Origin: Parcubacteria group bacterium Gr01-1014_20 | GTDB taxonomy: Bacteria > Patescibacteriota > Minisyncoccia > UBA6257 > 2-01-FULL-56-20 | Direction of reading: 5' to 3' | NCBI GenBank assembly: GCA_007376265.1 | Contig: VMFW01000005.1 | Location: 198 to 64,197 of the forward strand | DNA: 64,000 nucleotides | The notes under the pieces: model-generated | Told to the model about the DNA's origin: nothing | The model's input: the letters and a program-made list of their open reading frames with translations, nothing else | Database searches by the model: none | Shown here: positions 7,848 through 28,024 of the stretch, piece by piece | Layout: every line of letters starts with the position of its first letter | How positions within the stretch are numbered: position 1 is the first letter of the stretch | Translations under genes and position numbers: made by a program

Positions 7848-7917
7848 AGATTTGTGAATTTTATATTAGGCAACCCCAGGCTGTCAACAAAGGGGTTCGC
7901 AGGCTATACTTAGAGCT

Positions 7918-9955: not shown

Positions 9956-10478
9956 AACTAAAGCAACTCTCTTTGCAACAGTAATGACTCTAATTTACAC
10001 CCTGCTGGGCTTGGTGAGTATTTTTTACATGGTAGATGATTGGCTTGTTTCTTTGCCGATTGTGGTTTTCTATTTTTTGATTTTGGTTAGTACTCATCTC
10101 TCGGTCAGTTTTTTCTTAAGTATTATTCCGGAACACAGTTATATCCAAAAAGTAATCAACGGAGCGCTCCTGGTGATTTATTTTATTTTAGCTTTTAACC
10201 TAAACCACCCGCTCAATTTTATGATCGTAACAGCGCTACTTTTTTCAGTTTCAACGATAAAATACTTGCTGATGGTAGAGGAAAATCCTCATAAAAAACT
10301 GCTCTGGCGAAAAGTGAGTGTTCAAACGCTCGGAACAATCGCGTGCATACTAACAATACTCGGGATACTAAGCGGCTACGCCTTGATTTCAACTTCTTTG
10401 TGGCTGTTTTGTTTTATTATCGCCAACATCTACATTATTTCCATAAAACCGCTTTATAGAATCTCGAATGAGGATTAA
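9948..10478 (+). CDS. polytopic membrane protein of unknown function
   Basis: Track ORF 9756..10478 trimmed to internal ATG at 9948 (MNETKATLF...), which overlaps the upstream stop as ATGAATGA. About five hydrophobic helices. Confidence 0.45.
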   Translation: MNETKATLFATVMTLIYTLLGLVSIFYMVDDWLVSLPIVVFYFLILVSTHLSVSFFLSIIPEHSYIQKVINGALLVIYFILAFNLNHPLNFMIVTALLFSVSTIKYLLMVEENPHKKLLWRKVSVQTLGTIACILTILGILSGYALISTSLWLFCFIIANIYIISIKPLYRISNED

Positions 10479-11802
10479 TTCTAAAAACTTGTTTCTGCTT
10501 TTGGTTGACGTAGTCGCATTTTACGCGGCGCTTTTTTTGTCGCTCCTCGTTCGAACTGGACAAAGCTTTTCTTTGGACCAATACGGCCCCCACTTTAAGC
10601 CTTTTTCGCTCCTGCTCTTTGTTTGGCTTTTAATTTTTTACATTGTCGGACTTTACGACTTGAGGAATTTTTCTAAGCGGATCGCCTACCTCAAGATTTT
10701 CTTCATGGGGGTATTGGTCGCGCTGGCCGTGAGTCCAATTTTTTTCTATCTATATCCATCACTTAACATCGCTCCAAAGAGTATCTTGATACTGCTTTCG
10801 ATTTTTTTCGGCCTCATTAGCTATTACCTGCGTGAACTTATCGATAGGTACTATTTGGGATCAAAGGCGATCCTCAAGGTGTCGATTATCGGAAAGGGTG
10901 GAGATGTTACGGAGCTGATTAATTATTTAAGAGAGAATCCACAGATGGGATATAAGGTGGATTTATGGATTAGTGACTATATTAACGAGGATATCCCAGA
11001 CTTGATTCGGAAACGCGAAGTAGATGTGGTGGTGGTTCCCTCGAAACTCAGAAACGATAAGCGGCTGGTTTCAGAAATTTATCGTGAACTTTTGAAGGGG
11101 GTGGATGTGGTGAGTTTTTCGGAGTTTTACGAAACCGTCTTCGGAAAAGTTTCGATGGATGAACTTGAAGAGAATTGGTTTCTTGAAAAAATCAAGCCGA
11201 GGGATGGCTTCTATCTTTTTACAAAAAGGCTGGGAGACATCTTCTTGGCTTTGTTTATATTTTTAGTCACGCTTATTTTCTGGCCAATCACTGCTTTGAT
11301 TATTAAGTTAAGCTCGAAGGGATCGGTTTTCTTTATGAACAAGAGGGTTGGCCTCCGGGAGAAAAACTTCATGGTTTACAAGTTTCGAACCATGAGTGAC
11401 GGGAGTGATAAATTTGAGAAGATTGGTGAAAATTTCGGGGTCCAAAAAAATGATGGGCGCGTTTTTGGCTTCGGGAAGATTCTCCGGAAACTTCGAATCG
11501 ATGAGTGGCCACAAGTGATTAATATTTTAAAAGGCGAACTTTCTTTTGTCGGTCCGCGAGCGGACTTTATCGATTTTTACTACTTTCTAAAGGAGAAGAT
11601 CCCCCACTATCAGATCCGGACAATTCTTTTGCCGGGCTTAACTGGCTGGGCCCAGGTGCATGACAAGTTTGGCAGTTCGGTGGAAGACACCCGCGAGAGG
11701 TTGGCATACGACATCTACTACATCAAGAACCGATCTTTCGTGCTCGATTTTGTGATTGGTCTCAAAACCCTGAAGACGATTTTTACGTTTTCGGGGATGT
11801 AG
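10468..11802 (+). CDS. polyprenyl-phosphate sugar-1-phosphate transferase (bacterial sugar transferase, WbaP/PglC-like; initiating enzyme)
   Basis: 444 aa. N-terminal TM helices and a C-terminal bacterial sugar transferase domain (FKFRTM...DELPQ-like WPQVINILKGELSFVGPR). Confidence 0.8.
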   Translation: MRINSKNLFLLLVDVVAFYAALFLSLLVRTGQSFSLDQYGPHFKPFSLLLFVWLLIFYIVGLYDLRNFSKRIAYLKIFFMGVLVALAVSPIFFYLYPSLNIAPKSILILLSIFFGLISYYLRELIDRYYLGSKAILKVSIIGKGGDVTELINYLRENPQMGYKVDLWISDYINEDIPDLIRKREVDVVVVPSKLRNDKRLVSEIYRELLKGVDVVSFSEFYETVFGKVSMDELEENWFLEKIKPRDGFYLFTKRLGDIFLALFIFLVTLIFWPITALIIKLSSKGSVFFMNKRVGLREKNFMVYKFRTMSDGSDKFEKIGENFGVQKNDGRVFGFGKILRKLRIDEWPQVINILKGELSFVGPRADFIDFYYFLKEKIPHYQIRTILLPGLTGWAQVHDKFGSSVEDTRERLAYDIYYIKNRSFVLDFVIGLKTLKTIFTFSGM

Positions 11803-11829
11803 GAAAGAGTGTGTCCTGGGGGATATATT

Positions 11830-12825
11830 TTAGCTGGCGAATTTGCCTTTGGTGGCTAGAAGCGCATCGGTTGAATTGTATTTATAGGCAAAACCAAATT
11901 TGGTGATTTTAGTGCCATCGACGATGATGGGGTACGAGTAAGAGTTAATAACGCCGGGCGGAGTGGGGATTTTTCCCAAACTTAAATGCCAAGTGAGAAA
12001 GAAAAATATTTGGGCGAACTGGTGGGGAATTTTAAGAGTTTTCTTTCTTAGAATCTTCGCGATCTCTCTGAAAGTAAAAAAGCCTTTCGAGGCGAGATTC
12101 AACGGAATAATCTTTGGTTCTGTTTGGTGCGTAAGCCAGAAGTTGACGGCAGAGACGACATCATCTTCGTGAACGTACTGGCGGGCGGATTTTTCGCTGG
12201 TGATAGGGAGGAAGGGAAGGAGGCCCTTCATGAAACTCAAGAGGCCGGTTTTTTTGACCACGTTCTGAAGAAACGGGCCTGAAACCGAACCAACTCTTAA
12301 ACAAATGACTTCGGTTTTCGGATGATGTTTCTCAAAGATTTCAGATAGTTTCTTTTCGATGATTTTTTTGTCTCGGCCGTAGGCGATAATGGTTTCTTGG
12401 GCTTCGCTCTCTTCGGTAAAAGGATTGTTTAATTCATTTTTGGCATGGGCGCCGTAGACAGCAACGGTGCTAAAGTGAATGAGTTTCTTAACTTCGCTTT
12501 TGAGGGCAAAGTCGAAAACGTTTTCGGCGCCTTGAAAGTTGGAGTGCTCTTGGTACTCGCGATCTTTTTTAAAATAAGGAGTGCGGATAAAATAGGCGGC
12601 ATGAACTACAACGTCGACAGGTAGGAATACCTCGAGTTCTTTTTCGAGGTCGGTATCGGCTAGGTTCTTTTGGATAAAATGAACCTTGGGGTGGTCGGCT
12701 TTCCATAGAAAGCGGGGTTGACTCACGTCCAACGCAATGATTTTTTCAACATTTTTGTCTTCAAGCCACGAGGAAACTAGCTGACTGCCAATGTAGCCAC
12801 TAGCACCGGTTAAAAGGATTTTCAT
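11830..12825 (-). CDS. NAD-dependent epimerase/dehydratase (extended SDR)
   Basis: MKILLTGASGYIGS Rossmann motif. 331 aa. Confidence 0.7.
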   Translation of the reverse strand: MKILLTGASGYIGSQLVSSWLEDKNVEKIIALDVSQPRFLWKADHPKVHFIQKNLADTDLEKELEVFLPVDVVVHAAYFIRTPYFKKDREYQEHSNFQGAENVFDFALKSEVKKLIHFSTVAVYGAHAKNELNNPFTEESEAQETIIAYGRDKKIIEKKLSEIFEKHHPKTEVICLRVGSVSGPFLQNVVKKTGLLSFMKGLLPFLPITSEKSARQYVHEDDVVSAVNFWLTHQTEPKIIPLNLASKGFFTFREIAKILRKKTLKIPHQFAQIFFFLTWHLSLGKIPTPPGVINSYSYPIIVDGTKITKFGFAYKYNSTDALLATKGKFAS

Positions 12826-12851
12826 TTATTTAGTTCTAGTTTTGATGTCGG

Positions 12852-13553
12852 TTACCATTCTTTGATGGCTTTTTCCCAGCGTTCTAAATTACCACAATCA
12901 TACCACCGTCCATTTTCGAATTTGTAGCCGATTAACTTTCCGGCAATAGCGAGTTTGGGAAAAACGTCTTTTTCGATCATTAGGAAATCTTGGGTGAGAT
13001 CGGCGTAATCGAAAACCGAGGGTTCAAGGATGTAAAGCCCCGAATTTATAAACTCCGAAGGTGGGTTTTCTGGCTTTTCTAAAAATTCAGTAATCTTATG
13101 GCTGTTCATGACGGGAACTCCGTATTCTTCTGGATTCTGAACCTTTACGAGAGCAATAGTGGCGACGGGTTTTTCGCTCTCATGAAAACTTTTGAGCGCA
13201 GTGAGATCAAAATCTTTGAGTTCATCACCATTTGAAAGAATAAACTTCTCGTTACCCAACCAATCGCGAAGATTTTTTAACCACCCAAAAGTGCCGCTTG
13301 GTTTTTCCTCGAAGAATATGCTAATCTTGGCATTAGTTAAATCTGGAGTCCAGATTTTTTCCCACCTCGAAAAATCCAGTTCGTGACTACGACTAACCAA
13401 CACACCGATATCGTCCACGCCGTGGCGAGAAAGAAGATCGATGAGGTGATTCAGAATTGGTTTTTTCTTGACGGTAAGCAGGGGTTTGGGAATCTCGTAG
13501 GTAATCGGACGAAGGCGCGTCCCCAGGCCTCCAGCTAGAATGATGGCTTTCAT
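12852..13553 (-). CDS. sugar-phosphate nucleotidyltransferase
   Basis: MKAIILAGGLGTRLRPITYEIPKPLL G-loop. 233 aa. Confidence 0.8.
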   Translation of the reverse strand: MKAIILAGGLGTRLRPITYEIPKPLLTVKKKPILNHLIDLLSRHGVDDIGVLVSRSHELDFSRWEKIWTPDLTNAKISIFFEEKPSGTFGWLKNLRDWLGNEKFILSNGDELKDFDLTALKSFHESEKPVATIALVKVQNPEEYGVPVMNSHKITEFLEKPENPPSEFINSGLYILEPSVFDYADLTQDFLMIEKDVFPKLAIAGKLIGYKFENGRWYDCGNLERWEKAIKEW

Positions 13554-13580
13554 GTTGTGGTGAGCCTCATTATAAAATAA

Positions 13581-15059
13581 ATGATCAGAAAAATAAAGAC
13601 CTTCCTCTTTACTAACCAGACCAACCGGCAGACCATCGCCAAGAACACATTTTGGCTGGGAATAAGCAACATTGGTGGTCGTTTGATCAAAGCGATCATC
13701 ATTGTGTACGCTGCGAGGGTCCTGGGAGCCGCCGAGTGGGGAGTTTTCTCTTACGCTGTGACTTTGACAGCTTTTCTTACAGTTTTCACGGATTTCGGTA
13801 TCAATTCAATATTAGTAAGAGAATCATCCAGGATAGAAAGCGCCGAGGAGAGATCTAGACTTTTATCAACGTCGTTTTTGATTAAGTGTCTAATGCTCGC
13901 ATTCGGAGTGATCTTGATTATTTTTGTGGCACCCTTGATGACAAGCATTGAAGGAGTTAAGGAAATACTACCGATTGTGGCTTTTATTTTGATCTTTGAC
14001 ACGCTCCGGGAGTTCGGTTTTGCCCTAAACAAAGTCTTCGAGCGGATGGAACGGGAGGCCGGGCTTTTTATATTGACGAATGTAGCAATCGTGGTTTTTG
14101 GTTTTGTTTTTCTCGCAATCAGTCCGACCATTAAAGCTTTTGCCTATTCGTACGCCATAGGAACCGGACTAGGGATGTTGGCCACAGCCTGGATGCTCAA
14201 GAAGAGCATTGGTAAGATTTTTTCTGATTTTAACAAAAAATTCGTAAAACCCATTTTTTTGACGGCTTGGCCATTTGCAATATCGGGGGTCTTAGGAATC
14301 TTGATGATTAACACGGACATTTTAATAATTGGAAATTTGCTTTCAGCTGAAGACGTGGGATTATACTCGGCGGCGGACAGGATTATTCAGATCTTGTACG
14401 TTCTGCCAAGCATGGTGGTTGGTGGTATTTTGCCAACTTTTTCAAGACTGGCAGTTACAAACGGTAATAAAATGCGATTGACGATGGAAAACGTGATCGC
14501 ACTATTGCTACTCGTAGCGGTCCCAATATCAGTTGGAGGGTTTCTTTTCGGAGAAGAAATTATTGCTCTTCTTTTCGGTAATAGTTATATGGGGGCCGCT
14601 TCTTCTTTTCAAATTTTGGCGTTGACTTTGATGTTTAATTTTCCAGCGGTTATTTTGAGCAGCGCTATCTTTGCCTACAATCGTCAGAAGGCTTTGATCG
14701 TTAACGCGGCGGTGGCGGGTGGGGCGAATGTGGCACTGGACTTGATTTTGATCCCGACCATGGGAATCTTTGGTTCAGCAATCGCAACTTTCTCGGCTCA
14801 GATTTTCAGCAATATTTACTTGTGGAGCAAGATGAAGGGTATTAACTACTTTAAGGTTTGGCCTTATTTAAAAAAGGTGGTAATTGCGACGGCAGTAATG
14901 ACGGTTTTTATACTGGTAATGAAGTGGCTGCATGTGGGGATAGGTTTTGGAATTCCTACGGCCGTCTTGATTTACTTCGGCACACTATTGTTCTTGAAAG
15001 AAAAATTAATTTACGACCTTAAGTCGGTGTGGCATTCAACCTTCAAACCAGTAGTTTAG
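13581..15059 (+). CDS. wzx: Wzx-type oligosaccharide flippase (polysaccharide biosynthesis protein, MOP superfamily)
   Basis: 492 aa with ~12-14 TM helices. N-terminus QTIAKNTFWLGISNIGGRLIKAIIIVYAARVLG is typical of PST/Wzx. Confidence 0.75.
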   Translation: MIRKIKTFLFTNQTNRQTIAKNTFWLGISNIGGRLIKAIIIVYAARVLGAAEWGVFSYAVTLTAFLTVFTDFGINSILVRESSRIESAEERSRLLSTSFLIKCLMLAFGVILIIFVAPLMTSIEGVKEILPIVAFILIFDTLREFGFALNKVFERMEREAGLFILTNVAIVVFGFVFLAISPTIKAFAYSYAIGTGLGMLATAWMLKKSIGKIFSDFNKKFVKPIFLTAWPFAISGVLGILMINTDILIIGNLLSAEDVGLYSAADRIIQILYVLPSMVVGGILPTFSRLAVTNGNKMRLTMENVIALLLLVAVPISVGGFLFGEEIIALLFGNSYMGAASSFQILALTLMFNFPAVILSSAIFAYNRQKALIVNAAVAGGANVALDLILIPTMGIFGSAIATFSAQIFSNIYLWSKMKGINYFKVWPYLKKVVIATAVMTVFILVMKWLHVGIGFGIPTAVLIYFGTLLFLKEKLIYDLKSVWHSTFKPVV

Positions 15060-15883
15060 GAAGAAAAAACCACTTTTTTGATCCTAGAGAGAACCGGATT
15101 GAGTGTTTTTTTGATGGCGTCTGGAAGTTGTGTGTAGAGATAGTAAGAACAAACGAAGAGGAGGGCTTTGGGGTAGCGGGGGTATAGTTTTCGATAACGA
15201 TCAACAATCCTTATCGCTGAGGAAGCAGCTTCTTTTTGCCTACTAAATGACATGCCCCCTTCCCACATTTGATATTTAGTAAAGTATTCCTGAAAGTTAT
15301 AGAGCTTGCCCTTTAATCCTATTTTTAACCAAAACTCCCAATCAGCAAACTGAAGCATAGACTCATCGTATAGGCCTATTTTTTTGGCTAGCGCGAAACG
15401 GAATACGGAGGTGGCATTTACAATCGGATTGGCCACAAGGGCATTTTTTTTAATGTCCTCATCTTTTTCAGGCTTGAAACTTTTTATTTTTTCTTCTCCG
15501 TTTTTATCAGCAACAACGAATCCCCCGCCACAGCCAACATAATCTTTATTTTCGTCGAGAAATCGAACCTGTTTCGCTAGTTTTTGGGGATCAATCCAAT
15601 AATCATCATCGTCTAAAATGGCGATATACTCACCCGTGGCTTCCTTCAGGCCGAAGTTGGAAATTTTGGCGATGCGACCAAAATGGGGGCCTTTGAGGTA
15701 CTTAATCCGACTGTCTTTCTCTGCTAGGCCTAGGACTACTTTTTCGGTTTCATCAGTGGAGCCGTCGTCGGCAACGATTAACTCCCAATCTTTGAACGTT
15801 TGGGTTAAGACACTTTCTATCGCCCGACTAACAAACTGGACTCGATTGTGAGTGGCAATCAAAACAGTAACTTTGGGTTGCAT
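15056..15883 (-). CDS. glycosyltransferase family 2
   Basis: VTVLIATHNRVQFVSRAIESVLTQTF...ADDGSTD...DDDD motifs. Confidence 0.8.
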   Translation of the reverse strand: MQPKVTVLIATHNRVQFVSRAIESVLTQTFKDWELIVADDGSTDETEKVVLGLAEKDSRIKYLKGPHFGRIAKISNFGLKEATGEYIAILDDDDYWIDPQKLAKQVRFLDENKDYVGCGGGFVVADKNGEEKIKSFKPEKDEDIKKNALVANPIVNATSVFRFALAKKIGLYDESMLQFADWEFWLKIGLKGKLYNFQEYFTKYQMWEGGMSFSRQKEAASSAIRIVDRYRKLYPRYPKALLFVCSYYLYTQLPDAIKKTLNPVLSRIKKVVFSS

Positions 15884-15912
15884 GGACTACAGAATAACAG
15901 AAAAAAAATTGT

Positions 15913-15941
15913 TTGACAAAACAGAAGGAAATTATTAATAT
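15913..15941 (+). promoter_or_regulatory. sigma70-like promoter TTGACA-17 bp-TAATAT
   Basis: TTGACA at 15913-15918, TAATAT at 15936-15941. AAGGAGG RBS then GTG start at 15978. Confidence 0.55.
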
Positions 15942-15977
15942 TCAGCCGCACATTAAAAACTAAATAAGGAGGTTTGA

Positions 15978-16727
15978 GTGATCACGCTTTTAGCGATTAT
16001 GGGGCGCGGTATTCAGAAAACTGAGGGCGCCGGTGGTTTTTTCGGTTGGTCGTTAACCGAAGACCTGGAGGTGATGGAAGAAGATGGAGCTCACGCTGTT
16101 TATCGAAAACCAGTCGATGATGAAAATGTAAATTGTATGATTGGCGGCGGTCAGCTCAATATTTTGGCGGGAGCGGAGTTAATCTTGACTTACAGACCAA
16201 GGGTGGTCGTTTGCGCTTACGGACCTAGGTCCCAGTACTTGCGAGAAGTGGATGGGCGGAGCGAGAGCGAAGTAATGTCTAACGCCCTTCTGCAAATCCT
16301 TCCGATGTCTGGCCACTGCCCGCCGTTTTTGATGTCGCGCTGGGGCAGTGACAACGACCTGCCTGGACCATCAAACACGAAAACAGAGGTTGGCTACATT
16401 CTTGATTTAGCTTTGAACCAAAGCAATCGACGGGTAGGAATTGTAACGGTGGGCGTGCATTTGCCGAGAGTGATTCTCTTTGCGAAAGAACACCTGGAGA
16501 GCGAGCGTTTTAAGGATCAAAACCTTGAAATCAATTTCTTTTCGAGCGAACAGGTGCTAATGGAATCTAGCCCTGCGGTTTTCGCCCCAAGAGTGACGGC
16601 CCTTCACAGCTCAAGAGCTTACCGGAGAAATGCTGAACGAGAAGCTCGCGGGATAGAGGCTATTCTCTCTGGCACTTACGGTCAGGGATACGAGGCCTGG
16701 AGACCATTTAATGGAAAGAAGGGATAG
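15978..16727 (+). CDS. DUF218/YdcF/ElyC-like protein
   Basis: 249 aa. SESEVMSNALLQ...GPSNTKTEVGYILDL...VGIVTVGVHLPRVILFAKE resembles the DUF218 core (SEA..M...S.NT.EN...VTS..HM.R). GTG start with AAGGAGG RBS. Confidence 0.45.
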   Translation: MITLLAIMGRGIQKTEGAGGFFGWSLTEDLEVMEEDGAHAVYRKPVDDENVNCMIGGGQLNILAGAELILTYRPRVVVCAYGPRSQYLREVDGRSESEVMSNALLQILPMSGHCPPFLMSRWGSDNDLPGPSNTKTEVGYILDLALNQSNRRVGIVTVGVHLPRVILFAKEHLESERFKDQNLEINFFSSEQVLMESSPAVFAPRVTALHSSRAYRRNAEREARGIEAILSGTYGQGYEAWRPFNGKKG

Positions 16728-16730
16728 CGG

Positions 16731-17006
16731 ATGCTTGCCACCACATTTGGGTATGTAGCGGCGGTTACGGGAACATTTCTCATGCTACCCCAAGTCATCA
16801 AATCCTGGAGGACGAAAAGAGTGGAAGACTTGGCGATAGGCACGGTGATTCTCTACTTTGTAAACTGCTTGCTTTGGCTCATCTATGGAATTTTGATCAC
16901 CGCAACGCCTGTGATTGTGGCCAATGGCATTGGGCTTTTGGTCAGCATTTTCCAGGTAGCCATCAAGGTGAGGTATGGAAAACAAGGAGGGTTGAGTGCC
17001 AATTAG
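16731..17006 (+). CDS. SemiSWEET / PQ-loop sugar transporter (MtN3 family), 3-TM unit
   Basis: 91 aa. LPQVIKSWRTK PQ-loop motif with three predicted TM helices. Confidence 0.65.
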   Translation: MLATTFGYVAAVTGTFLMLPQVIKSWRTKRVEDLAIGTVILYFVNCLLWLIYGILITATPVIVANGIGLLVSIFQVAIKVRYGKQGGLSAN

Positions 17007-17733
17007 AGGCATCGCGCTTGACGCAGAGGGGGTGATGTTCGACTTTGAACGAGACGGGCACCACCTGGCGCATCGGAAGGTAGCCGCAGATCTAGGAGTG
17101 ACGCTGTCTGATATTGAAGCGCTTGAGGCTATCCCCAATTTAGTGGGAGGGCCCGGTAAACTCATTGCCAAACAGATTCACAATCTTGTAACCGAGAGAT
17201 TGGGGAGTTGCAGTTTGACACCCGAAGAAATCGAGGCTAAGAGCCGAAAATACTTCAAAGAGCTTTTCCTCAAAATGGCTTCGGGAGAGGTGAAGATTGA
17301 ACCTCGCCCGGGACTTCATGGAGCGATCTGTTTTTTCCGGAGCATAAATATTCCGGTTGTTGTTGGATCTTCGACCTGGCCCGAAGAATTCTGGATTTAC
17401 TGGTTTCGGACAGGACTGAAAGGCGCGTTCCCTAGCCTACAAGTAGTCCTGGCTAGCGAGGAAAATGGTATTCGGCATAAACCGGAACCAGATATCTTCC
17501 TCCGTACCGCCGAACTCATGGGTATCGGTCCGAAAGAACAGTTGATTTTCGAGGATTCACAGCGCGGAGTAGTGGCCGGAGTAGCCGCTGGATCAACGGT
17601 CATCGGAATGACAACCTATGATCATCCTCGAGAAATCATCCGTCTCTACGAAGCTGGAGCTAAACGAGTCTTCTCGGACTGGCGAGAAGTAAACTTACGC
17701 TCTTTGATCGACAACCTGAACTCGAGAAAGTAA
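16996..17733 (+). CDS. HAD-superfamily hydrolase (subfamily IA, beta-phosphoglucomutase/phosphatase-like)
   Basis: IALDAEGVMFDFE (DxD-like motif I region) and later ...FEDSQRGVVAGVAAG. GTG start with AGGAGGG RBS. Confidence 0.6.
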   Translation: MPIRGIALDAEGVMFDFERDGHHLAHRKVAADLGVTLSDIEALEAIPNLVGGPGKLIAKQIHNLVTERLGSCSLTPEEIEAKSRKYFKELFLKMASGEVKIEPRPGLHGAICFFRSINIPVVVGSSTWPEEFWIYWFRTGLKGAFPSLQVVLASEENGIRHKPEPDIFLRTAELMGIGPKEQLIFEDSQRGVVAGVAAGSTVIGMTTYDHPREIIRLYEAGAKRVFSDWREVNLRSLIDNLNSRK

Positions 17734-17770
17734 AAAACAACCGCTTCGATAATTATCGAAGCGGTTTTTC
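17732..17770. terminator. bidirectional rho-independent terminator
   Basis: AACCGCTTCGAT-aatt-ATCGAAGCGGTT hairpin flanked by an A-run and a T-run. It lies between the convergent HAD gene and the gmhB-fusion gene. Confidence 0.7.
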
Positions 17771-17777
17771 TATTTCT

Positions 17778-17981
17778 AGCTTTTGAGATATTCTTCAACC
17801 TCTCGGTATTTTTCCATGGTGTCGATACCCCTTGAATACTCACCACACTCGTAGCCGTAGAAGTTTTTGCCTTGGTCAATAACGGCGGGAAGAAGTTGTT
17901 TGCCAAGTTCGTAGGGTTGATTTTTTGGGATGTACGACAAAATTTCTTTTTTCAAAATGAAGACGCCTCGCAGGCGGTGGG
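17778..17981 (-). pseudogene. out-of-frame C-terminal part of a sugar nucleotidyltransferase domain, continuing the gmhB-fusion ORF after a frameshift
   Basis: Translation in an alternative frame gives ...FILKKEILSYIPKNQPYELGKQLLPAVIDQGKNFYGYECGEYSRGIDTMEKYREVEEYLKS*. This is a typical NTP-transferase C-terminus and ends exactly at the terminator. Confidence 0.5.
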
Positions 17982-18857
17982 CTAGTCGTCGGTGAGCTTG
18001 GTGCGTTGCATGCCAATGGGATCTTCCTTAGTCCAAAAGTTTTCAGCCATAGTGGTGTAGTCAATGAGGCTGACCATGTCACCATAGATAAGATAGAAGA
18101 GGTCGCCAATCTTACCCTCGAAGCTCTTCGCCCCTCCTGCAGTTCCCAAAATTTCTGCTTCCAAGTTGTAGTTGATCTTCACACCCCATTTGGAGCCATC
18201 GCCAAAGTAGTTCTGAATAACTTCTGGCAAATGGTGGAGGTTGATGAAGAACTCGCTCACTCCGTGACGCTTAAACTGATCAATGTTCCACTCGAGGAGA
18301 GGCTCTTTAACCGTAAAATTTGGCTTTATATGCTTAAAGTTTTCGTCGAGGGCGTGTCCTGGACCGGTTTTTACTAAAACGGTCTTAAGACCGGCACGCT
18401 TACCAGCAACCACATCGATCATGGCGTCCCCCACCATAAAGCTTTTCTTAGGATCAATGTTGAATTTTTTGAGAGCTTTCAGGATCATTCCGGGGGCTGG
18501 TTTGCGACAATTACATTTGATGCGATACTTTTTGACGTCGGCGTTTGGATGGTGCGGACAGAAATAAGCCGCGTCAATGCGGGCGCCAGATTGCCTTAGT
18601 TTTTCTTTCAGGTTATCGTGAATGACTTCTACTTCTTTGGGCGTAGCGAGGCCTCTTGCGATAACGGGCTGGTTAGAAACCAAAAAAACTAAAAAACCAT
18701 TGTCGTTCATGGTTTTAATCGCCTGGCTCGCGCGAGGGAGAAGTTTTAACTCTGCTGAGCTCCGCATGAGCTCAAAATGTTTTATGACTGTGCCATCACG
18801 ATCCAGAAAGAAAGCTTTTTGCTTTTTTAACTTGTTTGAGTTTGAACGGATTCCCAT
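17982..18857 (-). CDS. gmhB: D,D-heptose 1,7-bisphosphate phosphatase (GmhB, HAD-IIIA) fused to an N-terminally truncated sugar nucleotidyltransferase domain
   Basis: N-terminal ~175 aa FFLDRDGTVI...CNCRKPAPGM...MVGDAMIDVVAGKRAG is GmhB-like. The remainder, EPLLEWNIDQFKRHGVSEFF...EILGTAGG...LIYGDM, matches the middle of NTP transferases but lacks the GxGxRL loop. The reading frame breaks at 17982. Confidence 0.65.
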   Translation of the reverse strand: MGIRSNSNKLKKQKAFFLDRDGTVIKHFELMRSSAELKLLPRASQAIKTMNDNGFLVFLVSNQPVIARGLATPKEVEVIHDNLKEKLRQSGARIDAAYFCPHHPNADVKKYRIKCNCRKPAPGMILKALKKFNIDPKKSFMVGDAMIDVVAGKRAGLKTVLVKTGPGHALDENFKHIKPNFTVKEPLLEWNIDQFKRHGVSEFFINLHHLPEVIQNYFGDGSKWGVKINYNLEAEILGTAGGAKSFEGKIGDLFYLIYGDMVSLIDYTTMAENFWTKEDPIGMQRTKLTDD

Positions 18858-19441
18858 TTGCCAGGTTTAGTTTTGAAGTTAGGATGAGAGACGATGAGGT
18901 GCCAAATTACCGCCTGGAAGGCTTCGGTGTGAGGGGTAACGTTGTCAGGGTTCACGTTCGGAACAATGACACAGGCGTCGGCTACCTGGGCGGTGTAACC
19001 GCCATCACGACCAACGACGCCGATAACTTTCGCGCCGACTGATTTGGCAAGTTTGAGAGATTCGACAATGTTGGCACTAATGTTTTTCTCGGCGTTACCA
19101 CCACCGACAGAAAAAACCATAATGGCATCTTTTTTATTCAAAGCACTCCCCAAGAGCCAGTTGGCAAAAACAGTGTGCCAACCATCGTCATTGGTTCGAG
19201 TGGTGAGCTCTGAAACGTTATCAACGGGGGTGTAAGCTTCAATGCCGCCGAGATTTCTAAAGTCGTTTACGGCGTGGCTCGCGTGGCCGGCGCCACCGCC
19301 GACGCCAATAATAAAGAGACGGCCCTTCTCGTCTCGAACATTTTTTAGAAGGCCGATCATATTGCTCACTGATTCTTGGTCAACCTTGTCAGCAATCTCT
19401 TTAACTTCAGCTAGATAGGTTTTGATGTAATCTTTATACAT
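18827..19441 (-). CDS. gmhA: SIS-domain sedoheptulose-7-phosphate isomerase (GmhA/DiaA family)
   Basis: 204 aa. RLFIIGVGGGAGHASHAVNDF...VFSVGGGN SIS motifs. Confidence 0.7.
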   Translation of the reverse strand: MYKDYIKTYLAEVKEIADKVDQESVSNMIGLLKNVRDEKGRLFIIGVGGGAGHASHAVNDFRNLGGIEAYTPVDNVSELTTRTNDDGWHTVFANWLLGSALNKKDAIMVFSVGGGNAEKNISANIVESLKLAKSVGAKVIGVVGRDGGYTAQVADACVIVPNVNPDNVTPHTEAFQAVIWHLIVSHPNFKTKPGKWESVQTQTS

Positions 19442-19468
19442 GAGGGGATGATTTTTGGGTGGTAGGTT

Positions 19469-20197
19469 TTAGGACTCGTAGAGGGTGTAGCCGACTTTTT
19501 GGCCATCCTCGTAAAACATCTTAACGGTTTCGATCGAGAGCGTGTGGTGGTCATAGCCCACCATAGCTAGTTTTTTCAAGATGTCATGAGTAACGGTAAT
19601 GATATGGGCGCCAATTTCTTCGGCCTGATAGATATTGTAGAGTTCGCGGGTGGAAGCCCAGAGGAGCTCAAACTTCGGATATTTTGAAATCATTTCTTTG
19701 GCTTGGCGCATAATCGGCATGGGGTCGACGCCGGTATCGGCAATGCGGCCGGCAAAGACGGAGATAATAGCTGGGTTTTCCGGATTTAATGAGTTCACAA
19801 CCGTCTCAACTTGAGGAACGGTGAGGATGGCGGTCACGTTAAGCTTCACGCCGTTTCCCGAGAGTTTTTTTATAAGTCCGGCCGAAGACTCGCCCTTAGT
19901 ATTGGCGACCGGGATCTTTACGTAAACATTCGGAGCCCAGGCGGCGATGATTCTCGCCTGACGTTCCATCTCGTTGAATTCATCTGAGAAAACTTCAAAG
20001 GAGATGGGCTTGTCTTTAATGAAGGAGAGGATGTCTTTGGCAAATAAGGCATAGTCGGTAACACCGGCTTTGCGCATGAGCGTGGGATTGGTGGTTAGAC
20101 CCTTAATAAATGACTCCTTGGCTAGGGCGATCATGCCATCGCGCTCGGCGCCATCGGCAAAGATCTTTACCTTTAATTCTTCTACCTTTTTAGGCAT
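19469..20197 (-). CDS. transaldolase / fructose-6-phosphate aldolase family (short TalC/Fsa type)
   Basis: 242 aa. VKIFADGAE...GLTTNPTL motifs. Confidence 0.75.
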   Translation of the reverse strand: MPKKVEELKVKIFADGAERDGMIALAKESFIKGLTTNPTLMRKAGVTDYALFAKDILSFIKDKPISFEVFSDEFNEMERQARIIAAWAPNVYVKIPVANTKGESSAGLIKKLSGNGVKLNVTAILTVPQVETVVNSLNPENPAIISVFAGRIADTGVDPMPIMRQAKEMISKYPKFELLWASTRELYNIYQAEEIGAHIITVTHDILKKLAMVGYDHHTLSIETVKMFYEDGQKVGYTLYES

Positions 20198-20236
20198 CTT
20201 TTGATGCTACGACGAAAGGGGCTCTCTTGTAAAGAG

Positions 20237-21244
20237 TTAGAGTCTGATACTCTTCTTACTTTTTGACGAGACGTAGATGGCCTCAACAATCTGGTTGGCC
20301 CTTAACCCATCTTTGGAAGTGCCTACTATTTTTGCTTTTTTGTTTAATGCTTTCAAGAAATTTCCCCACTCTTCTTCCCAGCTTGTGTCTCTTCCGAACT
20401 CAAAAGTTTTCATACCTGGAACACCAAACTCTGGCTTTCTCTTGCCGAACATAAGCGTTTCTTTGCCGTAACTGCCACCTTTGCCATCAATCGTTAAAAA
20501 ACCTTTGTCACCGAAAATCTCAAAGGAGAACAGGTTTTTCCATTGTGTGGCGCTAACATGAAGGCTAGCCGTGACGGCTTTATTTTTCAAAATCATGAAA
20601 GCGTTGTCTTCGACCTTGGCTTTCCAAAACTTTGTTTCAACAGCCCCAAAAACTTCGTTGAACTCTCCGGCGAAGAAACGACAGAGATCGATGAGGTGAA
20701 CACCCTGGTCAAGCAGCTCGCCACCGCCCGACATGTCTTTACTAAAACGCCACTCATGCTCCATACCCTTTCTGCCGCCCTGGCCATACCTCCCCCTAAT
20801 AAACATGATTTTGCCAATACCCCCTCGATCAAAAATTTCTTTGGCTTTAATGATGGCGGCGTGAAAACGGTGGTTGAAACCTACTTTAACCAAGCGTTTG
20901 TATTTCAAGGCAGCGGCGATAATTTTTTTCGCTTCGGCGACATTCCGGCCGAAAGGCTTTTCGCAAAGAAGATGCTTGCCATTCTGCAAAGCTTCGATGG
21001 CGATCGGGGCTAAAAACTTATTGGGGACGGAAATAATAACCACGTCGACATCCTTCCGTTTGGCTAGCGATCGCCAATCTTTTTCGACTTGAGCTTGGTG
21101 TTTCTGGGCTAGAGCTTCGGCTTTTTTTATATCGATGTCGGTTACGGCGACAAGCCGACTACCTCGGGTAGCACTAATAGCCTCGGCTCGGCGGTAGCCC
21201 ATGAGACCGGAACCGACAATGCCGACCTTAATTATTTTTCCCAT
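20237..21244 (-). CDS. Gfo/Idh/MocA-family NAD(P)-dependent oxidoreductase
   Basis: MGKIIKVGIVGSGLMGYRRAEA...EKP Rossmann N-terminus. 335 aa. Confidence 0.75.
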   Translation of the reverse strand: MGKIIKVGIVGSGLMGYRRAEAISATRGSRLVAVTDIDIKKAEALAQKHQAQVEKDWRSLAKRKDVDVVIISVPNKFLAPIAIEALQNGKHLLCEKPFGRNVAEAKKIIAAALKYKRLVKVGFNHRFHAAIIKAKEIFDRGGIGKIMFIRGRYGQGGRKGMEHEWRFSKDMSGGGELLDQGVHLIDLCRFFAGEFNEVFGAVETKFWKAKVEDNAFMILKNKAVTASLHVSATQWKNLFSFEIFGDKGFLTIDGKGGSYGKETLMFGKRKPEFGVPGMKTFEFGRDTSWEEEWGNFLKALNKKAKIVGTSKDGLRANQIVEAIYVSSKSKKSIRL

Positions 21245-22068
21245 TTGATTCTTCTTAGGGTAAAGGCATCACTTCGACTGATTTTTTCTACCTCCTCTTT
21301 GGTCCAATCATCGTATTTGTCCCAAACAGCACTCAAGAATTTTCCCGTAAGGCCGTCGGAGCCAGATGAGGCCAAAAAGAGGCACAGGTCTGCGGCTTTT
21401 TCCGGGGAGACTCCGCCGTCTTTCTTTTGTTTAAGTAGTTCTTCATATTTTTCTTTTCCCAGTTTGCTCTCGCCAGCCGATAGGGCATCCTCTAAGAATT
21501 TGGTGTTGACCGGGCCGGGAGCAATGCAGTTTATATCAACATTATAGCCTTTAACTTCGGCGGCAAGGGTCTCGGTTAGTCGAACAATTGCCCCCTTCGA
21601 AGAGTTGTAGGCACTAAAATTAGGAAGGGGGCCGTCACCGCCACCGGAAAAGTTGATAATCTTACCGGATTTTCTTTCGATCATTTTCGATAAAACTGCT
21701 TGAATCATTTGAAAAGTTCCAAACACGTTGATTTCGTAAGTTTGCTTCCAATGTTTAATGTCAACTTCAGCCGAAGGGCCGATGGGGCCATAAATGCCGG
21801 CCGAATTAACCAAAATGTCGACGGGCTTAAAAGTTTTTTCGGTTTTTGAAACCAAGGCCAGACAGTCTTCGATTTTGGAAACATCGGCTACCTGGCAGGC
21901 GACTTCAGGAGAAATTGTTTTTAATTCTTTGAAGGCCCTCACGAGTTCATCTTCTCGCCGAGCCGAAATCATGACACGGGCGCCTTCTCTTAAGTAGGCC
22001 TCGGCTATCTTAAAACCGATGCCGCCACTACCGCCCGTAATTATGGCTACCTTACTTTTTAGCTTCAT
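21232..22068 (-). CDS. short-chain dehydrogenase/reductase (SDR)
   Basis: KVAIITGGSGGIG...NSAG...YNSSK catalytic pattern. Confidence 0.75.
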   Translation of the reverse strand: MKLKSKVAIITGGSGGIGFKIAEAYLREGARVMISARREDELVRAFKELKTISPEVACQVADVSKIEDCLALVSKTEKTFKPVDILVNSAGIYGPIGPSAEVDIKHWKQTYEINVFGTFQMIQAVLSKMIERKSGKIINFSGGGDGPLPNFSAYNSSKGAIVRLTETLAAEVKGYNVDINCIAPGPVNTKFLEDALSAGESKLGKEKYEELLKQKKDGGVSPEKAADLCLFLASSGSDGLTGKFLSAVWDKYDDWTKEEVEKISRSDAFTLRRIKWEK

Positions 22069-22071
22069 AAT

Positions 22072-23382
22072 TTAATTTCGACCAGTACCTAAGTAGATAA
22101 AGCCGACTTTTTTGATTTCATCTTCTTTATCCCAAAAGAAATTGTTCGTGTCAAAGAAGAGGGCTCCGGGTTTTGCTAGAGTCGAGAGTTTTGATAAATC
22201 TAGGTTTTTAAAACTTGGCCACGGCGTTATAAAGATTAAGGCGTCAGCCCCCTCGACGGTTTTATATGGGTCCATGGAAAAGTCGAACTGGCCGTAGGTT
22301 GAAACCTCGGATATGTCCGCCTCCGGATCGTGAAGCTTCAGAATGGCGCCTAGTTCTTTTAACTCTTTGGCAACTTCCATAGAGCGAGAACGGCGAAGGG
22401 TTTTGGTGCCAACCTTGTAGGTGAGACCAAAGATACCGACCGTTTTGTCCGTTATTGAATTCAGGCAACTTTTTATTTTAGAGATAGCTAAATCTTTTCT
22501 GGATTCGTTCTTAGAGAAAACGTTTTTGATTATAGGTAGATCTAGGTCTCCTTCGCTCGCTAGACTCATCAGGATCTTTAGATCTCGCCCGAGAGTGGCG
22601 CCAGAAAATCCTAAACCAGCATCTAAGAAGGCTTTGGGTCCAATGCGAGGTTCGGAACGAAGGGCGCGACTAACAGAGAGGACATCCGCTCCGGTTTTCT
22701 CGCAGGCGTCGGCAATGTCATTTATAAAACTTACCGAAGTAGCCAGGAAGCTGTTTATGGCGTGCTTCGACATTTCGGCTGATGCCGGAGACATTTCCAA
22801 GAACTCGGCTTTCAAGCCAGAGAAGATATCTTTGAGTTTTTGAGAGGCGCTCATACTATCGGTGCCGATAATTATCCGAGTGGGATTAAAAAAACATTTC
22901 ACGGCTTCTCCGAGCCGAAGGTTTTCGGGGGTGTAGGCGTAGTCGAAGTTTAAATCGGGACGTTTTGTTTTTATGAATTCACACATTTTCTTAGAGGTTC
23001 CGATGGGGATTTGGCTCGTCATAACAATGAGAGTCGCTTCGCTGATAAAAGGGAGGGATTTTTCCAGGTTTTGCCAAATGGGACTTAGGTCAACCTCATC
23101 CGCGTCGTTGACTGGGGTGTCAAAAGTAAACCACAGAACATTGCAATTTTTTATTTCTTCAAAATTGGTAGAAAAACTCAACCGGCCAGCCGAAAAGTTT
23201 TTTTGGATCAGCTCCTGAAGTTCTGGTTCTGGCAGCGGGGGGAGGGCTTTTTTAAAATTATCGATTAGGGCGTTGTCTTCAGAAATTCCGACTACCATGT
23301 GCCCTAAATCGGCTAGACCGGCAGAGTAAATTTCACCAAGATGCCAAAGCCCAAGAATGGCAATTTTATATGGGGATGCCAT
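22072..23382 (-). CDS. nucleotide-sugar 6-dehydrogenase (UDP-glucose/GDP-mannose dehydrogenase family)
   Basis: 436 aa. N-terminal IAILGLWHLGEIYSAGLADLGH Rossmann with central and C-terminal UDPG_MGDP_dh-like regions. Confidence 0.7.
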   Translation of the reverse strand: MASPYKIAILGLWHLGEIYSAGLADLGHMVVGISEDNALIDNFKKALPPLPEPELQELIQKNFSAGRLSFSTNFEEIKNCNVLWFTFDTPVNDADEVDLSPIWQNLEKSLPFISEATLIVMTSQIPIGTSKKMCEFIKTKRPDLNFDYAYTPENLRLGEAVKCFFNPTRIIIGTDSMSASQKLKDIFSGLKAEFLEMSPASAEMSKHAINSFLATSVSFINDIADACEKTGADVLSVSRALRSEPRIGPKAFLDAGLGFSGATLGRDLKILMSLASEGDLDLPIIKNVFSKNESRKDLAISKIKSCLNSITDKTVGIFGLTYKVGTKTLRRSRSMEVAKELKELGAILKLHDPEADISEVSTYGQFDFSMDPYKTVEGADALIFITPWPSFKNLDLSKLSTLAKPGALFFDTNNFFWDKEDEIKKVGFIYLGTGRN

Positions 23383-23394
23383 TGAGTCGTATAC

Positions 23395-24381
23395 TTAAAA
23401 ATCAACGAGAACCTTAGAGCCCTCAAAGTCGAAGCGATAGCTCATTTCTCTCAAGCCCAACCCTCTCATGGCTTCCCGGAACTTCTTTTTGTTGTCTTCG
23501 ATGTAGAAAGTGAAGAAGCCTCCTCCGCCAGCACCAGAAATTTTGCCACCTAAAGCGCCATTTTGCTTGGCGTTCTCGTAGATTTTATCGAATTTTTCGT
23601 TGGTTATGCCGCCGGCGAGCTTTTTCTTGTGAGCCCAGTGAGCATCGAAGAGTCGGCCAACTTCGGTAATATTGCCGGATTCTACGGCTTCAAGGATTTC
23701 GTACCCTAACTCCTTGATATAGTGCATGCTCTCAGTAACATCTTTGTTGTCTACCCTCAGGGCGCTTGAGGTACTAGTTAAAATCGGGTCGGCGCTTCTC
23801 GTGTCTCCAGTGAAAAAAATCAGAAGATTATTATTCAGATCGTCGGCTACCTCTTGTGAGACGTTAGCTTTTCTAACTTTTACTTTACCGTCTTTTTCAA
23901 TTTCGAGAACCGTCAATCCTCCGAAAGCGGCCATATAGCCGTCTTGTTTACCGATGGGTCTTTTTAAGACTTCGGCTTCCACCCGAAAGTCTTCTTCGGC
24001 TAAATCTCCCAGAGAGACATAGTCCCTTTTTAAAACGTGGAGGGCGTGCAAGAGACCCACGGTGTAACAGCTGGAGGAACCGAGGCCAGTGCCGGCTGAA
24101 ATATCGGCGATAGAGCTAATCTCAATCCCCTTCTCGACACCCATCATTCTTAAAACCTCGCGGGCGATTTCGTGCTGAATTTCGTCCAAGCGCTCGACGG
24201 TTTCGGCTTTGGAATACTTTAAGCGGATGAGGTCGTCGACAACCGGCCGATTCACATCAACAAACATATATTTGTTAATGCCAGCCGAAAATATAAAACC
24301 GCCATATTTCTCGTAGTAGGACGGCAGATCGGTGCCGCCACCGCCCAAGGTAACCCTGAATGGGGTGCGAGTGACAATCAT
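23395..24381 (-). CDS. GHMP-family sugar kinase, HddA-like (D-glycero-D-manno-heptose 7-phosphate kinase family)
   Basis: MIVTRTPFRVTLGGGGTDLP...GTGLGSSS GHMP motifs. Paralog of 44333..45328. Confidence 0.65.
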   Translation of the reverse strand: MIVTRTPFRVTLGGGGTDLPSYYEKYGGFIFSAGINKYMFVDVNRPVVDDLIRLKYSKAETVERLDEIQHEIAREVLRMMGVEKGIEISSIADISAGTGLGSSSCYTVGLLHALHVLKRDYVSLGDLAEEDFRVEAEVLKRPIGKQDGYMAAFGGLTVLEIEKDGKVKVRKANVSQEVADDLNNNLLIFFTGDTRSADPILTSTSSALRVDNKDVTESMHYIKELGYEILEAVESGNITEVGRLFDAHWAHKKKLAGGITNEKFDKIYENAKQNGALGGKISGAGGGGFFTFYIEDNKKKFREAMRGLGLREMSYRFDFEGSKVLVDF

Positions 24382-24413
24382 GCCTCCATGTTATCCCAAA
24401 CAAACTAAATTGT

Positions 24414-25349
24414 CTATTTCAGGCGGCCAAGTTCTTTTTCTTTGCTTAGAAAGTCTACCAGCGCCTGGATTCCCTCTTCGATGCCGGTTTTTGGAGACCA
24501 TCCGATTTTTCTGGCTTCGCTTATGTCAGCTAGAGTAATTTGGGCTTCACCCGAGAGGTTAGGTTTAAAAACCGGATCAACACTAGAGGCTAGTAATTTT
24601 TTTATGACGTTATAAATTTCGAGGATGGAGTTGTTGGTGCCACTCCCAAGATTAAAAACCTTGCCGTCGGTTCTGGGGTCGGTAATACAAAGCAACATAA
24701 AATCGTTGAAGTCTTCGATATACAGGAAGTCTCGCCGCTTGGAACCGTCGCCGTAGATTATGGGTTGTTCGCCTTTGAGGAGTTTAATGATGAAGGCTGG
24801 CATGGATGGAGGAATGGTGCGCCGATAGTCTTGCTTAGAACCGTAGACACTAAAGGGTCGGATGCCGGTTGAAACAACGCCGTGAAACTCGGCGTACTTT
24901 CTTGCAAACAGATTGCCGCAAACCTTACTAACGGCATAAAAACTGTCGGGGGCGACGTTGGCTTCTGGGGTCGGAAAGATATCAATGCCTTCATAAACAG
25001 CGGAAGACTCGGCATTGACAACTTTGCTCACTTTAGCTCGGCGAGCGGCTTCGAATACGTTCGCGGTTCCCACGACGTTGATATCGGCAGTTTCAACTGG
25101 ATCTTCTTGGCAGTCCTCAATGCAGTTTTTGGCCGCTAAGTGAAAAACGGCGTCAACCCCGTGGAATAGAGGGTATATATCTTTGGATCGGATATCGAGT
25201 TTGTGAAAATCGACCCCCTTAGGAATCTGCTCGAAGACACCATAGGACAAGTTATCGATGCCTAAAACTTCGTAGCCGCTACCCAATAACCGATCGGCAA
25301 GGTTCGAACCAATGAACCCGGCGACTCCGGTTACGAGAACCTTTTTCAT
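24414..25349 (-). CDS. NAD-dependent epimerase/dehydratase (UDP-glucose 4-epimerase-like)
   Basis: MKKVLVTGVAGFIGSNL...YAVSK. Confidence 0.7.
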   Translation of the reverse strand: MKKVLVTGVAGFIGSNLADRLLGSGYEVLGIDNLSYGVFEQIPKGVDFHKLDIRSKDIYPLFHGVDAVFHLAAKNCIEDCQEDPVETADINVVGTANVFEAARRAKVSKVVNAESSAVYEGIDIFPTPEANVAPDSFYAVSKVCGNLFARKYAEFHGVVSTGIRPFSVYGSKQDYRRTIPPSMPAFIIKLLKGEQPIIYGDGSKRRDFLYIEDFNDFMLLCITDPRTDGKVFNLGSGTNNSILEIYNVIKKLLASSVDPVFKPNLSGEAQITLADISEARKIGWSPKTGIEEGIQALVDFLSKEKELGRLK

Positions 25350-25395
25350 AAAGTATAGGGTAGCATGGCAAAAACTAGGTGTCTAACACACCGTC

Positions 25396-26265
25396 CTACA
25401 AGCGATCATACTTACTCTTTCGGTAGGATAGAAAAAGGGGCATAAGAACCCAGGAAAAGGGCGGGGTCTTTAGGAAGATCCCCAAGATTTTCATTCGGCG
25501 CCAATGAGCTCTAAGCACTTCGATAGTTTTTGAATACTTCTCGCGATCGGTTTTGGAAAACCAAGATTCAACAATATCCAACATTTTCGGAAATTGCTCG
25601 GCGGTGCGAATCAGGTAGTCACTTCGGTAGGAGTCGTTAGTCGTGTGAAGCCGGAGTAGACCAACAACTTTGTCGAGGTAGTAAAATTGGGCACCGTGAT
25701 AGGCAAGATTAATCCAAACATAGTGTTCATCGCAGGCGTACCAGCCCTCTTCGAAAGCGCCGAACTTATCAAAAAACTCTTTTCTCACCAAAACAGTTAG
25801 AACATTAATGAAATTTTGAGGGAGAACTTGCTCGAAAATGTTGCCAGAAAATCGGGGTTGATCGTTTTTGTAAAGAGTAGCGGTGTCGCTCCCGTAAAAA
25901 TAGTGAATCTTAGCGTAGGAAACACCACATTCGGGATGAGCTTCCATGAAGGCAACTTGGTCTTCGATTTTATTTTTTAGAAAAATATTGTCGGCGTCCA
26001 AGAAAGCGACGTACTTACCGGCGGCCTGCCGGATGCCAGCGTTTCTGGCTGAAGCCATTTTCTGATTGGTCTGGAAGATGTATCGGATGCGACGATCTTT
26101 TTCGGCATAGCTTTTTGCGATGTGGGCGGTTGCGTCAGTCGATCCATCATCAACGATAATTAGTTCCCAATTCGAATAAGTTTGGGCGATGACGCTTTCG
26201 ATCGTCTCCCGCAGAAAACCGGCAGCGTTGTAGGCGGGAATAACGATGGAAACCAGAGGTTTCAT
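25396..26265 (-). CDS. glycosyltransferase family 2
   Basis: Track ORF 25396..26397 trimmed to internal start MKPLVSIVIPAYN (26265). The longer form would overlap the upstream gene by ~130 nt. IVDDGSTD...DADN motifs. Confidence 0.7.
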   Translation of the reverse strand: MKPLVSIVIPAYNAAGFLRETIESVIAQTYSNWELIIVDDGSTDATAHIAKSYAEKDRRIRYIFQTNQKMASARNAGIRQAAGKYVAFLDADNIFLKNKIEDQVAFMEAHPECGVSYAKIHYFYGSDTATLYKNDQPRFSGNIFEQVLPQNFINVLTVLVRKEFFDKFGAFEEGWYACDEHYVWINLAYHGAQFYYLDKVVGLLRLHTTNDSYRSDYLIRTAEQFPKMLDIVESWFSKTDREKYSKTIEVLRAHWRRMKILGIFLKTPPFSWVLMPLFLSYRKSKYDRL

Positions 26266-26266
26266 C

Positions 26267-26974
26267 TTATATTTTCTTGTCTTTGATGTCGGACAGCCAG
26301 GCCTCAAGTATTTTAACTTCGCTACCCACCATGGATTTTTCCAGGATTTTCTTGATGATGTCGGGATAGTCGCTCTCGCCTCTAGACTTTTTCGCATAAC
26401 AGACGATATTGGGGAGAAAATTAAACCCGAATTTACTTAAGTTTTTTAGGGCGCCTTCGGCTTTTGAAAGGCCGATCGATTTGGCGAGCGGGATTTTGCT
26501 CTCTAGGTTGTTAGAGAATTTTTCAAACTTGAAGTCATCAAACCCGATTTTACTCAGCACATAGCGATACTTGGTTTCAGACCAAAAATCTTTGTGGTAG
26601 GCCCAAGAAGCTTCGTGGGAGCCAAAAATGTGCCGACCGAGAACAAATTGATCATCCAGAGACGCCTTCACAAATTTCTTGGCAGACTCTTCAAAATCCG
26701 GAGTTTCGACAACTAGAAGTCCCCCAATTTTTAGCCAGCGATGCCATCTCGCAATCAGGAGCAAGGCTTCTTGTCTCGAAAAATGCTCAAGGAGATGGTG
26801 CGACCTAATTTCATCAACAGTATTGGTTTCGTAATCAAGGTCACGGACGTCGGCATAGAGATCGGCTCTGACCTCCTGGGCGGTGTGTTCGCTCGGGGGT
26901 AGGTCTATATTGATATAGCCGGGCAAGTATTTTTCCTGGCAGCCGAGGTGAAGTTTAATTTTTTTTTCTTCCAT
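26267..26974 (-). CDS. class I SAM-dependent methyltransferase
   Basis: 235 aa. LHLGCQEKYLPGYINID...HLLEH pattern (Methyltransf_11/23-like). Confidence 0.55.
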   Translation of the reverse strand: MEEKKIKLHLGCQEKYLPGYINIDLPPSEHTAQEVRADLYADVRDLDYETNTVDEIRSHHLLEHFSRQEALLLIARWHRWLKIGGLLVVETPDFEESAKKFVKASLDDQFVLGRHIFGSHEASWAYHKDFWSETKYRYVLSKIGFDDFKFEKFSNNLESKIPLAKSIGLSKAEGALKNLSKFGFNFLPNIVCYAKKSRGESDYPDIIKKILEKSMVGSEVKILEAWLSDIKDKKI

Positions 26975-26976
26975 GA

Positions 26977-28023: not shown

Positions 28024-28024
28024 A

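Follow-up and report, generated by a model that had tools for sequence, protein, structure and literature searches.

The deposited scaffold of Parcubacteria group bacterium Gr01-1014_20 carries an open reading frame (ORF) in which a GmhB-type phosphatase runs directly into part of a sugar nucleotidyltransferase (NT). Comparison with other assemblies of the same region suggests that this fused form, which lacks the G-loop of the NT and is frameshifted, is very probably a local assembly error in the scaffold deposited for this metagenome-assembled genome (MAG). The feature is most likely not biological, and its value lies in data hygiene, not in biology. Here, the window denotes the whole stretch of 64,000 nucleotides that was analysed. 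The reference for the locus was ENA contig ERZ27284378 k139_340945 (99,747 bp; MEGAHIT-named), on which the corresponding locus is referred to as L001.

Structure of the 291-aa ORF

The apparent gmhB-NT fusion ORF occupies 17982..18857 on the minus strand and encodes 291 aa. Its NCBI record, TSC82462.1, belongs to a contig of 65,699 bp and is annotated as heptose bisphosphate phosphatase, with TSC82461 and TSC82463 as the adjacent records. The phosphatase portion (18304..18857, minus) comprises residues 1-184 of a 193-aa gene for a gmhB-type HAD-IIIA phosphatase, is identical to P0128 and to L001 9409-9962, and is without the last 9 codons and the stop codon. A profile search matched HAD-IIIA and GmhB models to ORF residues 12-184. 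The scores exceed the cut-offs of TIGR01662 (HAD-IIIA; 114.8 bits vs 44.6) and TIGR01656 (histidinol-phosphatase-domain; 134.8 bits vs 84.15), which bears out the N-terminal GmhB-type HAD-IIIA phosphatase of the original prediction. The GmhB model NF006506 is the best named match of this part, and the GmhB equivalog cut-offs are not reached (NF006506, 145.9 vs 178; TIGR00213, 117.4 vs 149.6; NF050049, 91.6 vs 250); the assignment as GmhB rests on gene context.

The translated phosphatase contains FLDRDGT, VSNQ, CRKP and GDAMID together with a Zn loop, CPHH...CNC, which we take to be HAD catalytic motifs I-IV and the zinc-binding Cys/His loop of GmhB. The nearest solved structures are those of E. 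coli GmhB (2gmw and 3l8e). Like GmhB, the phosphatase in the window has the DxDGT, S/T, K and DD motifs and a Cys/His zinc loop, and it adjoins a GmhA-like isomerase and an HddA-like kinase in its cluster; unlike GmhB, the window ORF has its last 9 residues swapped for 107 residues of NT fragment.

From residue 185, the 291-aa ORF passes into a sugar-1-phosphate NT with no linker between the two. The Pfam model NTP_transferase (PF00483) matches ORF residues 182-279 at model positions 28-129 of 245 only, and since the match begins at model position 28, the region of the G-loop, GxGxR(L), is missing from the ORF. Both the linkerless entry into the middle of the NT fold and the skipped G-loop had been correctly recognized beforehand. 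This middle fragment (17983..18303, minus) corresponds to residues 37-142 of a 239-aa NT, P0037, read in the gmhB frame, and is 100% identical to L001 10107-10428. It ends in a TAG stop (17982..17984, minus) that coincides with the junction of the second gap described below. The C-terminal fragment of the NT, residues 172-239 and the stop codon, lies out of frame at 17776..17982 (minus) and is 100% identical to L001 from 10514 on. In this second frame, the sequence from 17982 down to 17779 (minus) reads AHRLRGVFILKKEILSYIP...EEYLKS, followed by the stop at 17778..17776, and its translation is identical to the C-terminus of P0037; an NT C-terminus readable in another frame, as originally described, is indeed present. 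The PF00483 domain (~230 residues) has no single continuous frame in the window: model positions 28-129 are in frame, NT residues 143-171 are gone, and residues 172-239 lie elsewhere. Judging from its sequence, the NT module of the ORF cannot be catalytic as written.

Downstream of the NT, a bidirectional intrinsic terminator (17739..17766; 12-bp stem with 6 GC pairs, 4-nt loop, T-runs on both strands) separates the convergent NT gene and HAD gene (16996..17733), and it is kept in L001 and in a second locus, L002, introduced below. The terminator begins 10 nt past the stop codon, so the C-terminus does not end exactly at a terminator at 17778, as had been proposed. An antisense ORF of 123 aa (18006..18377, plus) lies inside conserved coding sequence, and we found no support for it.

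Relative to L001, alignment and blastn place two gaps at the locus. The first, at junction 18303..18304 (minus), leaves the window without the 145 bp of L001 9963-10107, with a 1-nt positional ambiguity. The missing segment holds gmhB residues 185-193 with the stop codon, the 10-nt spacer, and NT residues 1-36 (MTNKITQAVILCAGLGTRLRPLTNTTPKPMIPLLGK), including the G-loop. Relative to gmhB, the NT occupies the +1 frame, and a loss of 145 nt (1 mod 3) brings the two into register. The apparent fusion is thus the product of a 145-bp gap that chanced to join two frames. The second gap, at junction 17983/17982, lies beyond a 322-bp island and lacks the 85 bp of L001 10429-10513, that is, 28 codons and 1 nt corresponding to NT residues 143-171 (YVDADVAELDQNMKFVKIHPKPHVEKYRN). 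The join of TA to G at this junction creates the TAG that ends the 291-aa ORF. The missing residues 143-171 contain HPKP, presumably equivalent to the (E)KP lysine motif that is conserved in RmlA-type enzymes. The frame break previously placed at 17982 is confirmed by the TAG at 17984..17982, but it is not a simple frameshift, as 85 nt are missing.

The locus in other assemblies and relatives

Besides the two gaps, the ENA contig shows 0 mismatches to window 7776..28265 and one SNP against window 25897..56272, and over the ~52 kb that surround the locus (window 7776..60011) it differs by one SNP. Its gene order is a GmhA-like SIS gene, gmhB (193 aa), a 10-nt spacer, the NT (239 aa), the terminator, and the convergent HAD gene. 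The NT of this contig, P0037, has the G-loop LCAGLGTRLRPL and matches NT models along its full length. A homology search returned it as a stand-alone protein, 99% identical to the NT part of the 291-aa ORF, together with stand-alone 193-aa phosphatases. The window runs ~4 kb beyond the end of the ENA contig, and therefore the two represent different assemblies.

A second orthologous locus, L002 from the Hainich aquifer, is ~85% identical; there, gmhB and the NT form two separate genes, each having a stop and a start codon of its own, and the sequence is collinear through both gap regions. Since L001 and L002 both have two genes, the two-gene arrangement is ancestral and coherent. In addition, a Logan contig (L003; run SRR8863434, BioProject PRJNA512237) is identical to window 50495..59827. 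The contigs end close together at 59827..60011, with L003 stopping at 59827 and the ENA contig at ~60011, and the IDBA-UD scaffold runs on to at least 64000; scaffolding may have carried it across a repeat or variable site at this place.

The comparison was widened to window 1..15292 by means of L007, again from the ENA contig, and two further gaps emerged. After window 2411 (2411/2412), the 153 bp of L007 12882-13034 are absent, which deprives a 205-aa protein of its RBS, its ATG, and its signal peptide, the last with a Cys-rich lipobox-like stretch, and leaves the 152-aa TSC82443.1. After window 1863 (1863/1864), 14 bp of the ENA contig are absent, which frameshifts the last ~16 residues of a 168-aa protein and yields the 166-aa TSC82442.1. 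All four indels are sequence absent from the window, each damages a gene, and none lies at a repeat. Microhomology at the four junctions amounts to 1, 0, 1 and 1 nt, too little to indicate slippage or recombination between repeats. Comparison of the deleted segments and their flanks with the window (blastn-short) revealed no paralogous repeats, such as might stem from the other NT genes, with nothing longer than 16 nt.

Point differences are few. Only 16 SNPs in ~60 kb distinguish the window from the ENA contig, at 410, 563 and 45931 and at 13 positions in groEL. These 13 SNPs fall within 193 nt (4438..4630) of groEL (3634..5292) and leave the GroEL protein unchanged, and the surrounding tens of kb are identical. 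The patch looks as if it came from a co-occurring strain, or like a recombination tract that was resolved differently by the assemblers.

The Logan and ENA assemblies both contain the undeleted forms (239, 193, 205 and 168 aa), whereas the damaged proteins (291, 152 and 166 aa) occur in the NCBI MAG only and in no Logan or ENA assembly. An exact 46-mer of the gmhB 3' end gave no matches in GTDB genome contigs or JGI metagenome contigs. Exact-product searches with two longest-ORF translations from the window (37202..38149 and 61355..63196) likewise returned nothing. The 120 best homologues comprised phosphatases alone (182-243 aa), NTs alone (239 aa), full fusions (418-445 aa), and a double NT (492 aa). 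None of these 120 has ~291 aa or a like architecture, a result that does not favor the suggestion that the truncated NT-like module is a conserved non-catalytic domain. The 492-aa protein, P0026 from another organism, contains two tandem full-length NT copies with a G-loop in each and is 64% identical to the NT fragment of the window.

Origin of the gaps

We infer that assembly or scaffolding, and no event in the cell, produced the gaps. In this scenario, the IDBA-UD scaffold, which was left uncurated, would have dropped 145 bp and 85 bp, one on each side of the 322-bp island. Local assembly errors fit the combination of four gene-damaging deletions, few point differences, at most 1 nt of microhomology, and occurrence in the uncurated IDBA-UD scaffold only, with the intact sequence given by two other assemblies of data from that project. 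Three observations point the other way. The SNPs show that the consensus of the window is not exactly that of the ENA and Logan assemblies; the window is free of Ns, although scaffolding inserts Ns in gaps between contigs (PMC7111523); and no repeat or paralogous k-mer able to explain a break in the graph was found at the gap sites.

MAG Gr01-1014_20 belongs to BioProject PRJNA512237, which covers Ohio groundwater with several Greene County samples, and run SRR8863434 is a source run for genomes tied to Greene County (PMC11549363). Binning was performed with MetaBAT, MaxBin and DAS Tool, and a curation step is not described (PMC6730927). The assembly method is known for its proneness to error. 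Chen et al. 2020 reported 13 local assembly errors in one 1.13-Mb CPR genome and pointed out that skipping curation spreads incorrect protein sequences into databases (PMC7111523). The defects in the window resemble those errors in that they come from IDBA-UD and a CPR host, are short, local and gene-corrupting, and are not seen in other assemblies; at a few per 100 kb, they also occur with a frequency of similar order (PMC7111523). However, the errors of Chen et al. 2020 were defined by lack of read support (PMC7111523), whereas the gaps in the window were recognized by comparison of assemblies.

An assembly origin has consequences for use of the record. TSC82462.1 would very likely be a chimera of two genes in NCBI nr, and at least two nearby records (TSC82442.1 and TSC82443.1) would be damaged likewise. 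Pathway reconstruction from the MAG would wrongly show a heptose branch without its activating enzyme, and surveys of domain architecture would count the ORF as a false new combination of GmhB and a partial NT. Where uncurated IDBA-UD MAGs show apparent pseudogenes or odd fusions, independent assemblies should be consulted before any interpretation.

Alternatively, the deletions may be real: a strain or sub-population present at Greene County in October 2014 would recently have lost the NT by two deletions or one complex event, and would have suffered other small deletions as well. In that case, the locus would represent a pseudogene of very recent origin, with the heptose branch inactive unless a paralogous NT takes over. 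Several observations are compatible with this account. The SNPs relative to the ENA contig, including the 13-SNP patch in groEL, indicate some heterogeneity in the population; the ENA and Logan contigs possibly derive from a sample other than that of the MAG; the loss could be compensated for by the NT paralogues (12852..13553 and 43603..44355); and odd short genes, such as the half-length GmhA-like gene at 30894..31376, are common to all assemblies. Nevertheless, we consider real deletions unlikely. Four gene-damaging deletions set against ~16 SNPs in 60 kb would be an implausible mutation spectrum. A single 720-bp gene amid identical sequence received two of the four, and a second hit in a dead gene has no selective explanation. 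Microhomology at the junctions does not exceed 1 nt, and neither the Logan nor the ENA assemblies contain the deleted alleles. The narrower proposal that a co-occurring strain of groundwater Parcubacteria very recently lost the NT of one of two heptose sets, and damaged a lipoprotein gene, via small deletions without microhomology seems to us more doubtful still. If true, real deletions would mean rapid variation of surface glycans by gene loss in an otherwise clonal CPR population.

It formed part of the original prediction that the locus is what remains of a decaying bifunctional GmhB-HddC enzyme, ancestrally encoded by a single ORF; this is highly improbable. Among the homologues, genuine proteins of 418-445 aa that combine HAD-IIIA with a complete NTP_transferase domain are common, and in these natural fusions from other organisms (e.g. 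P0025) the phosphatase precedes the NT, as in the window ORF. They differ from it in having a linker of ~20-30 residues and a complete NT with its G-loop in one frame, whereas the parts of the window ORF are joined by loss of sequence. Moreover, L001 and L002 have two separate genes, each with its own stop and start codon, and the spacer of 10 nt, which contradicts decay of a bifunctional gene. Of the homologues of the phosphatase part, the nearest (60-94% identity) are without exception stand-alone, with lengths of 182-216 aa, and the fusions are only 34-52% identical. The natural GmhB-NT fusions are not the ancestor of the window locus, and the window ORF does not belong to their group.

Finally, programmed frameshifting by the ribosome, or an error in sequencing one base at 17982, would explain the authentic NT C-terminus in the downstream frame, but the alignment to L001 and L002 refutes this account: residues 143-171 (85 nt) are absent and joining the frames would give an incomplete enzyme, the G-loop is absent as well, inspection of 17975-17990 revealed no homopolymer or slippery heptamer at the junction (CGACGACTAGCCCACC), and 16500..19600 contains no structured RNA with an Rfam match at E <= 0.1. 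Of the earlier suggestion of a sequencing or programmed frameshift, the notion of a sequencing-type artefact comes close to the best explanation; the programmed and homopolymer versions fail, given that slippage cannot restore 85 absent nucleotides.

The putative heptose cluster and related genes in the window

Family matches and gene order suggest that the intact gmhB (193 aa) and NT (239 aa), separate and adjacent, close a heptose-activation operon. The upstream cluster (18827..25349, minus) is identical in the ENA contig. According to Pfam and NCBIfam matches, it encodes, all on the minus strand, a GmhA-like SIS isomerase (18827..19441), a transaldolase (19469..20197), a Gfo/Idh/MocA oxidoreductase (20237..21244), an SDR (21232..22068), an NDP-sugar dehydrogenase (22072..23382), an HddA-like GHMP kinase (23395..24381), and an epimerase/dehydratase (24414..25349). 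From these family matches and their order, the transaldolase would supply sedoheptulose-7-P, which the GmhA-like isomerase would convert to heptose-7-P, and the HddA-like kinase would produce heptose-1,7-bisphosphate. GmhB would then take off the 7-phosphate, and the NT would convert heptose-1-P, its candidate substrate, and NTP to NDP-heptose. The dehydrogenase, SDR, oxidoreductase and epimerase may tailor the NDP-heptose for a surface glycan.

P0037 resembles NTs of the RmlA fold (PF00483; PDB 8x7s, 4y7t and 5xhw/6jq8) in having the full fold with the G-loop, GTAGG, YGD and the C-terminal sugar-binding part. Unlike these intact enzymes, the window copy is without residues 1-36 and 143-171. 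The nearest solved relative of P0037 is the UTP-glucose-1-phosphate uridylyltransferase 8x7s. P0037 holds the position of HddC after gmhB; unlike HddC (NF049965), it scores 80.5 bits against an equivalog cut-off of 300, and models for mannose-1-P guanylyltransferase and MurU give it higher scores. Only its position and neighbors make the NT HddC-like.

It had been stated that this heptose set has no other NT and that its function hinges on the present gene. There is indeed no other NT in the set at 17.9-25.3 kb, but the window contains two more, an NT paralogue of 233 aa (12852..13553) and an HddC-like NT paralogue of 250 aa (43603..44355, minus), for which HddC is the best NCBIfam match at 135.8 vs a cut-off of 300. 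The dependence on this gene is also weakened as a claim, since other assemblies of the organism carry it intact.

The HddC-like paralogue overlaps a second HddA-like kinase (44333..45328, minus), and a full-length GmhA (34010..34591, minus) lies ~9 kb from this kinase/NT pair. The kinase and NT (43603..45328) and the GmhA make up a second heptose-activation set; no second gmhB was noticed within the window. A half-length GmhA-like SIS protein of 160 aa (30894..31376, minus) matches the GmhA model at positions 2-84 of 154 only. The ENA contig has the same gene, so that no assembly gap is responsible for its length; the gene may be a genuine GmhA paralogue of half length, or a remnant. At 46960..48234 (minus), two short ORFs (195 and 181 aa in the ENA contig) have only weak matches, to the N-terminal domain of transketolase and to its pyrimidine-binding domain. 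A split transketolase that seems complete (42749..43510 and 41847..42752) lies ~4 kb away, and the two ORFs may represent a degenerate or shortened transketolase duplicate.
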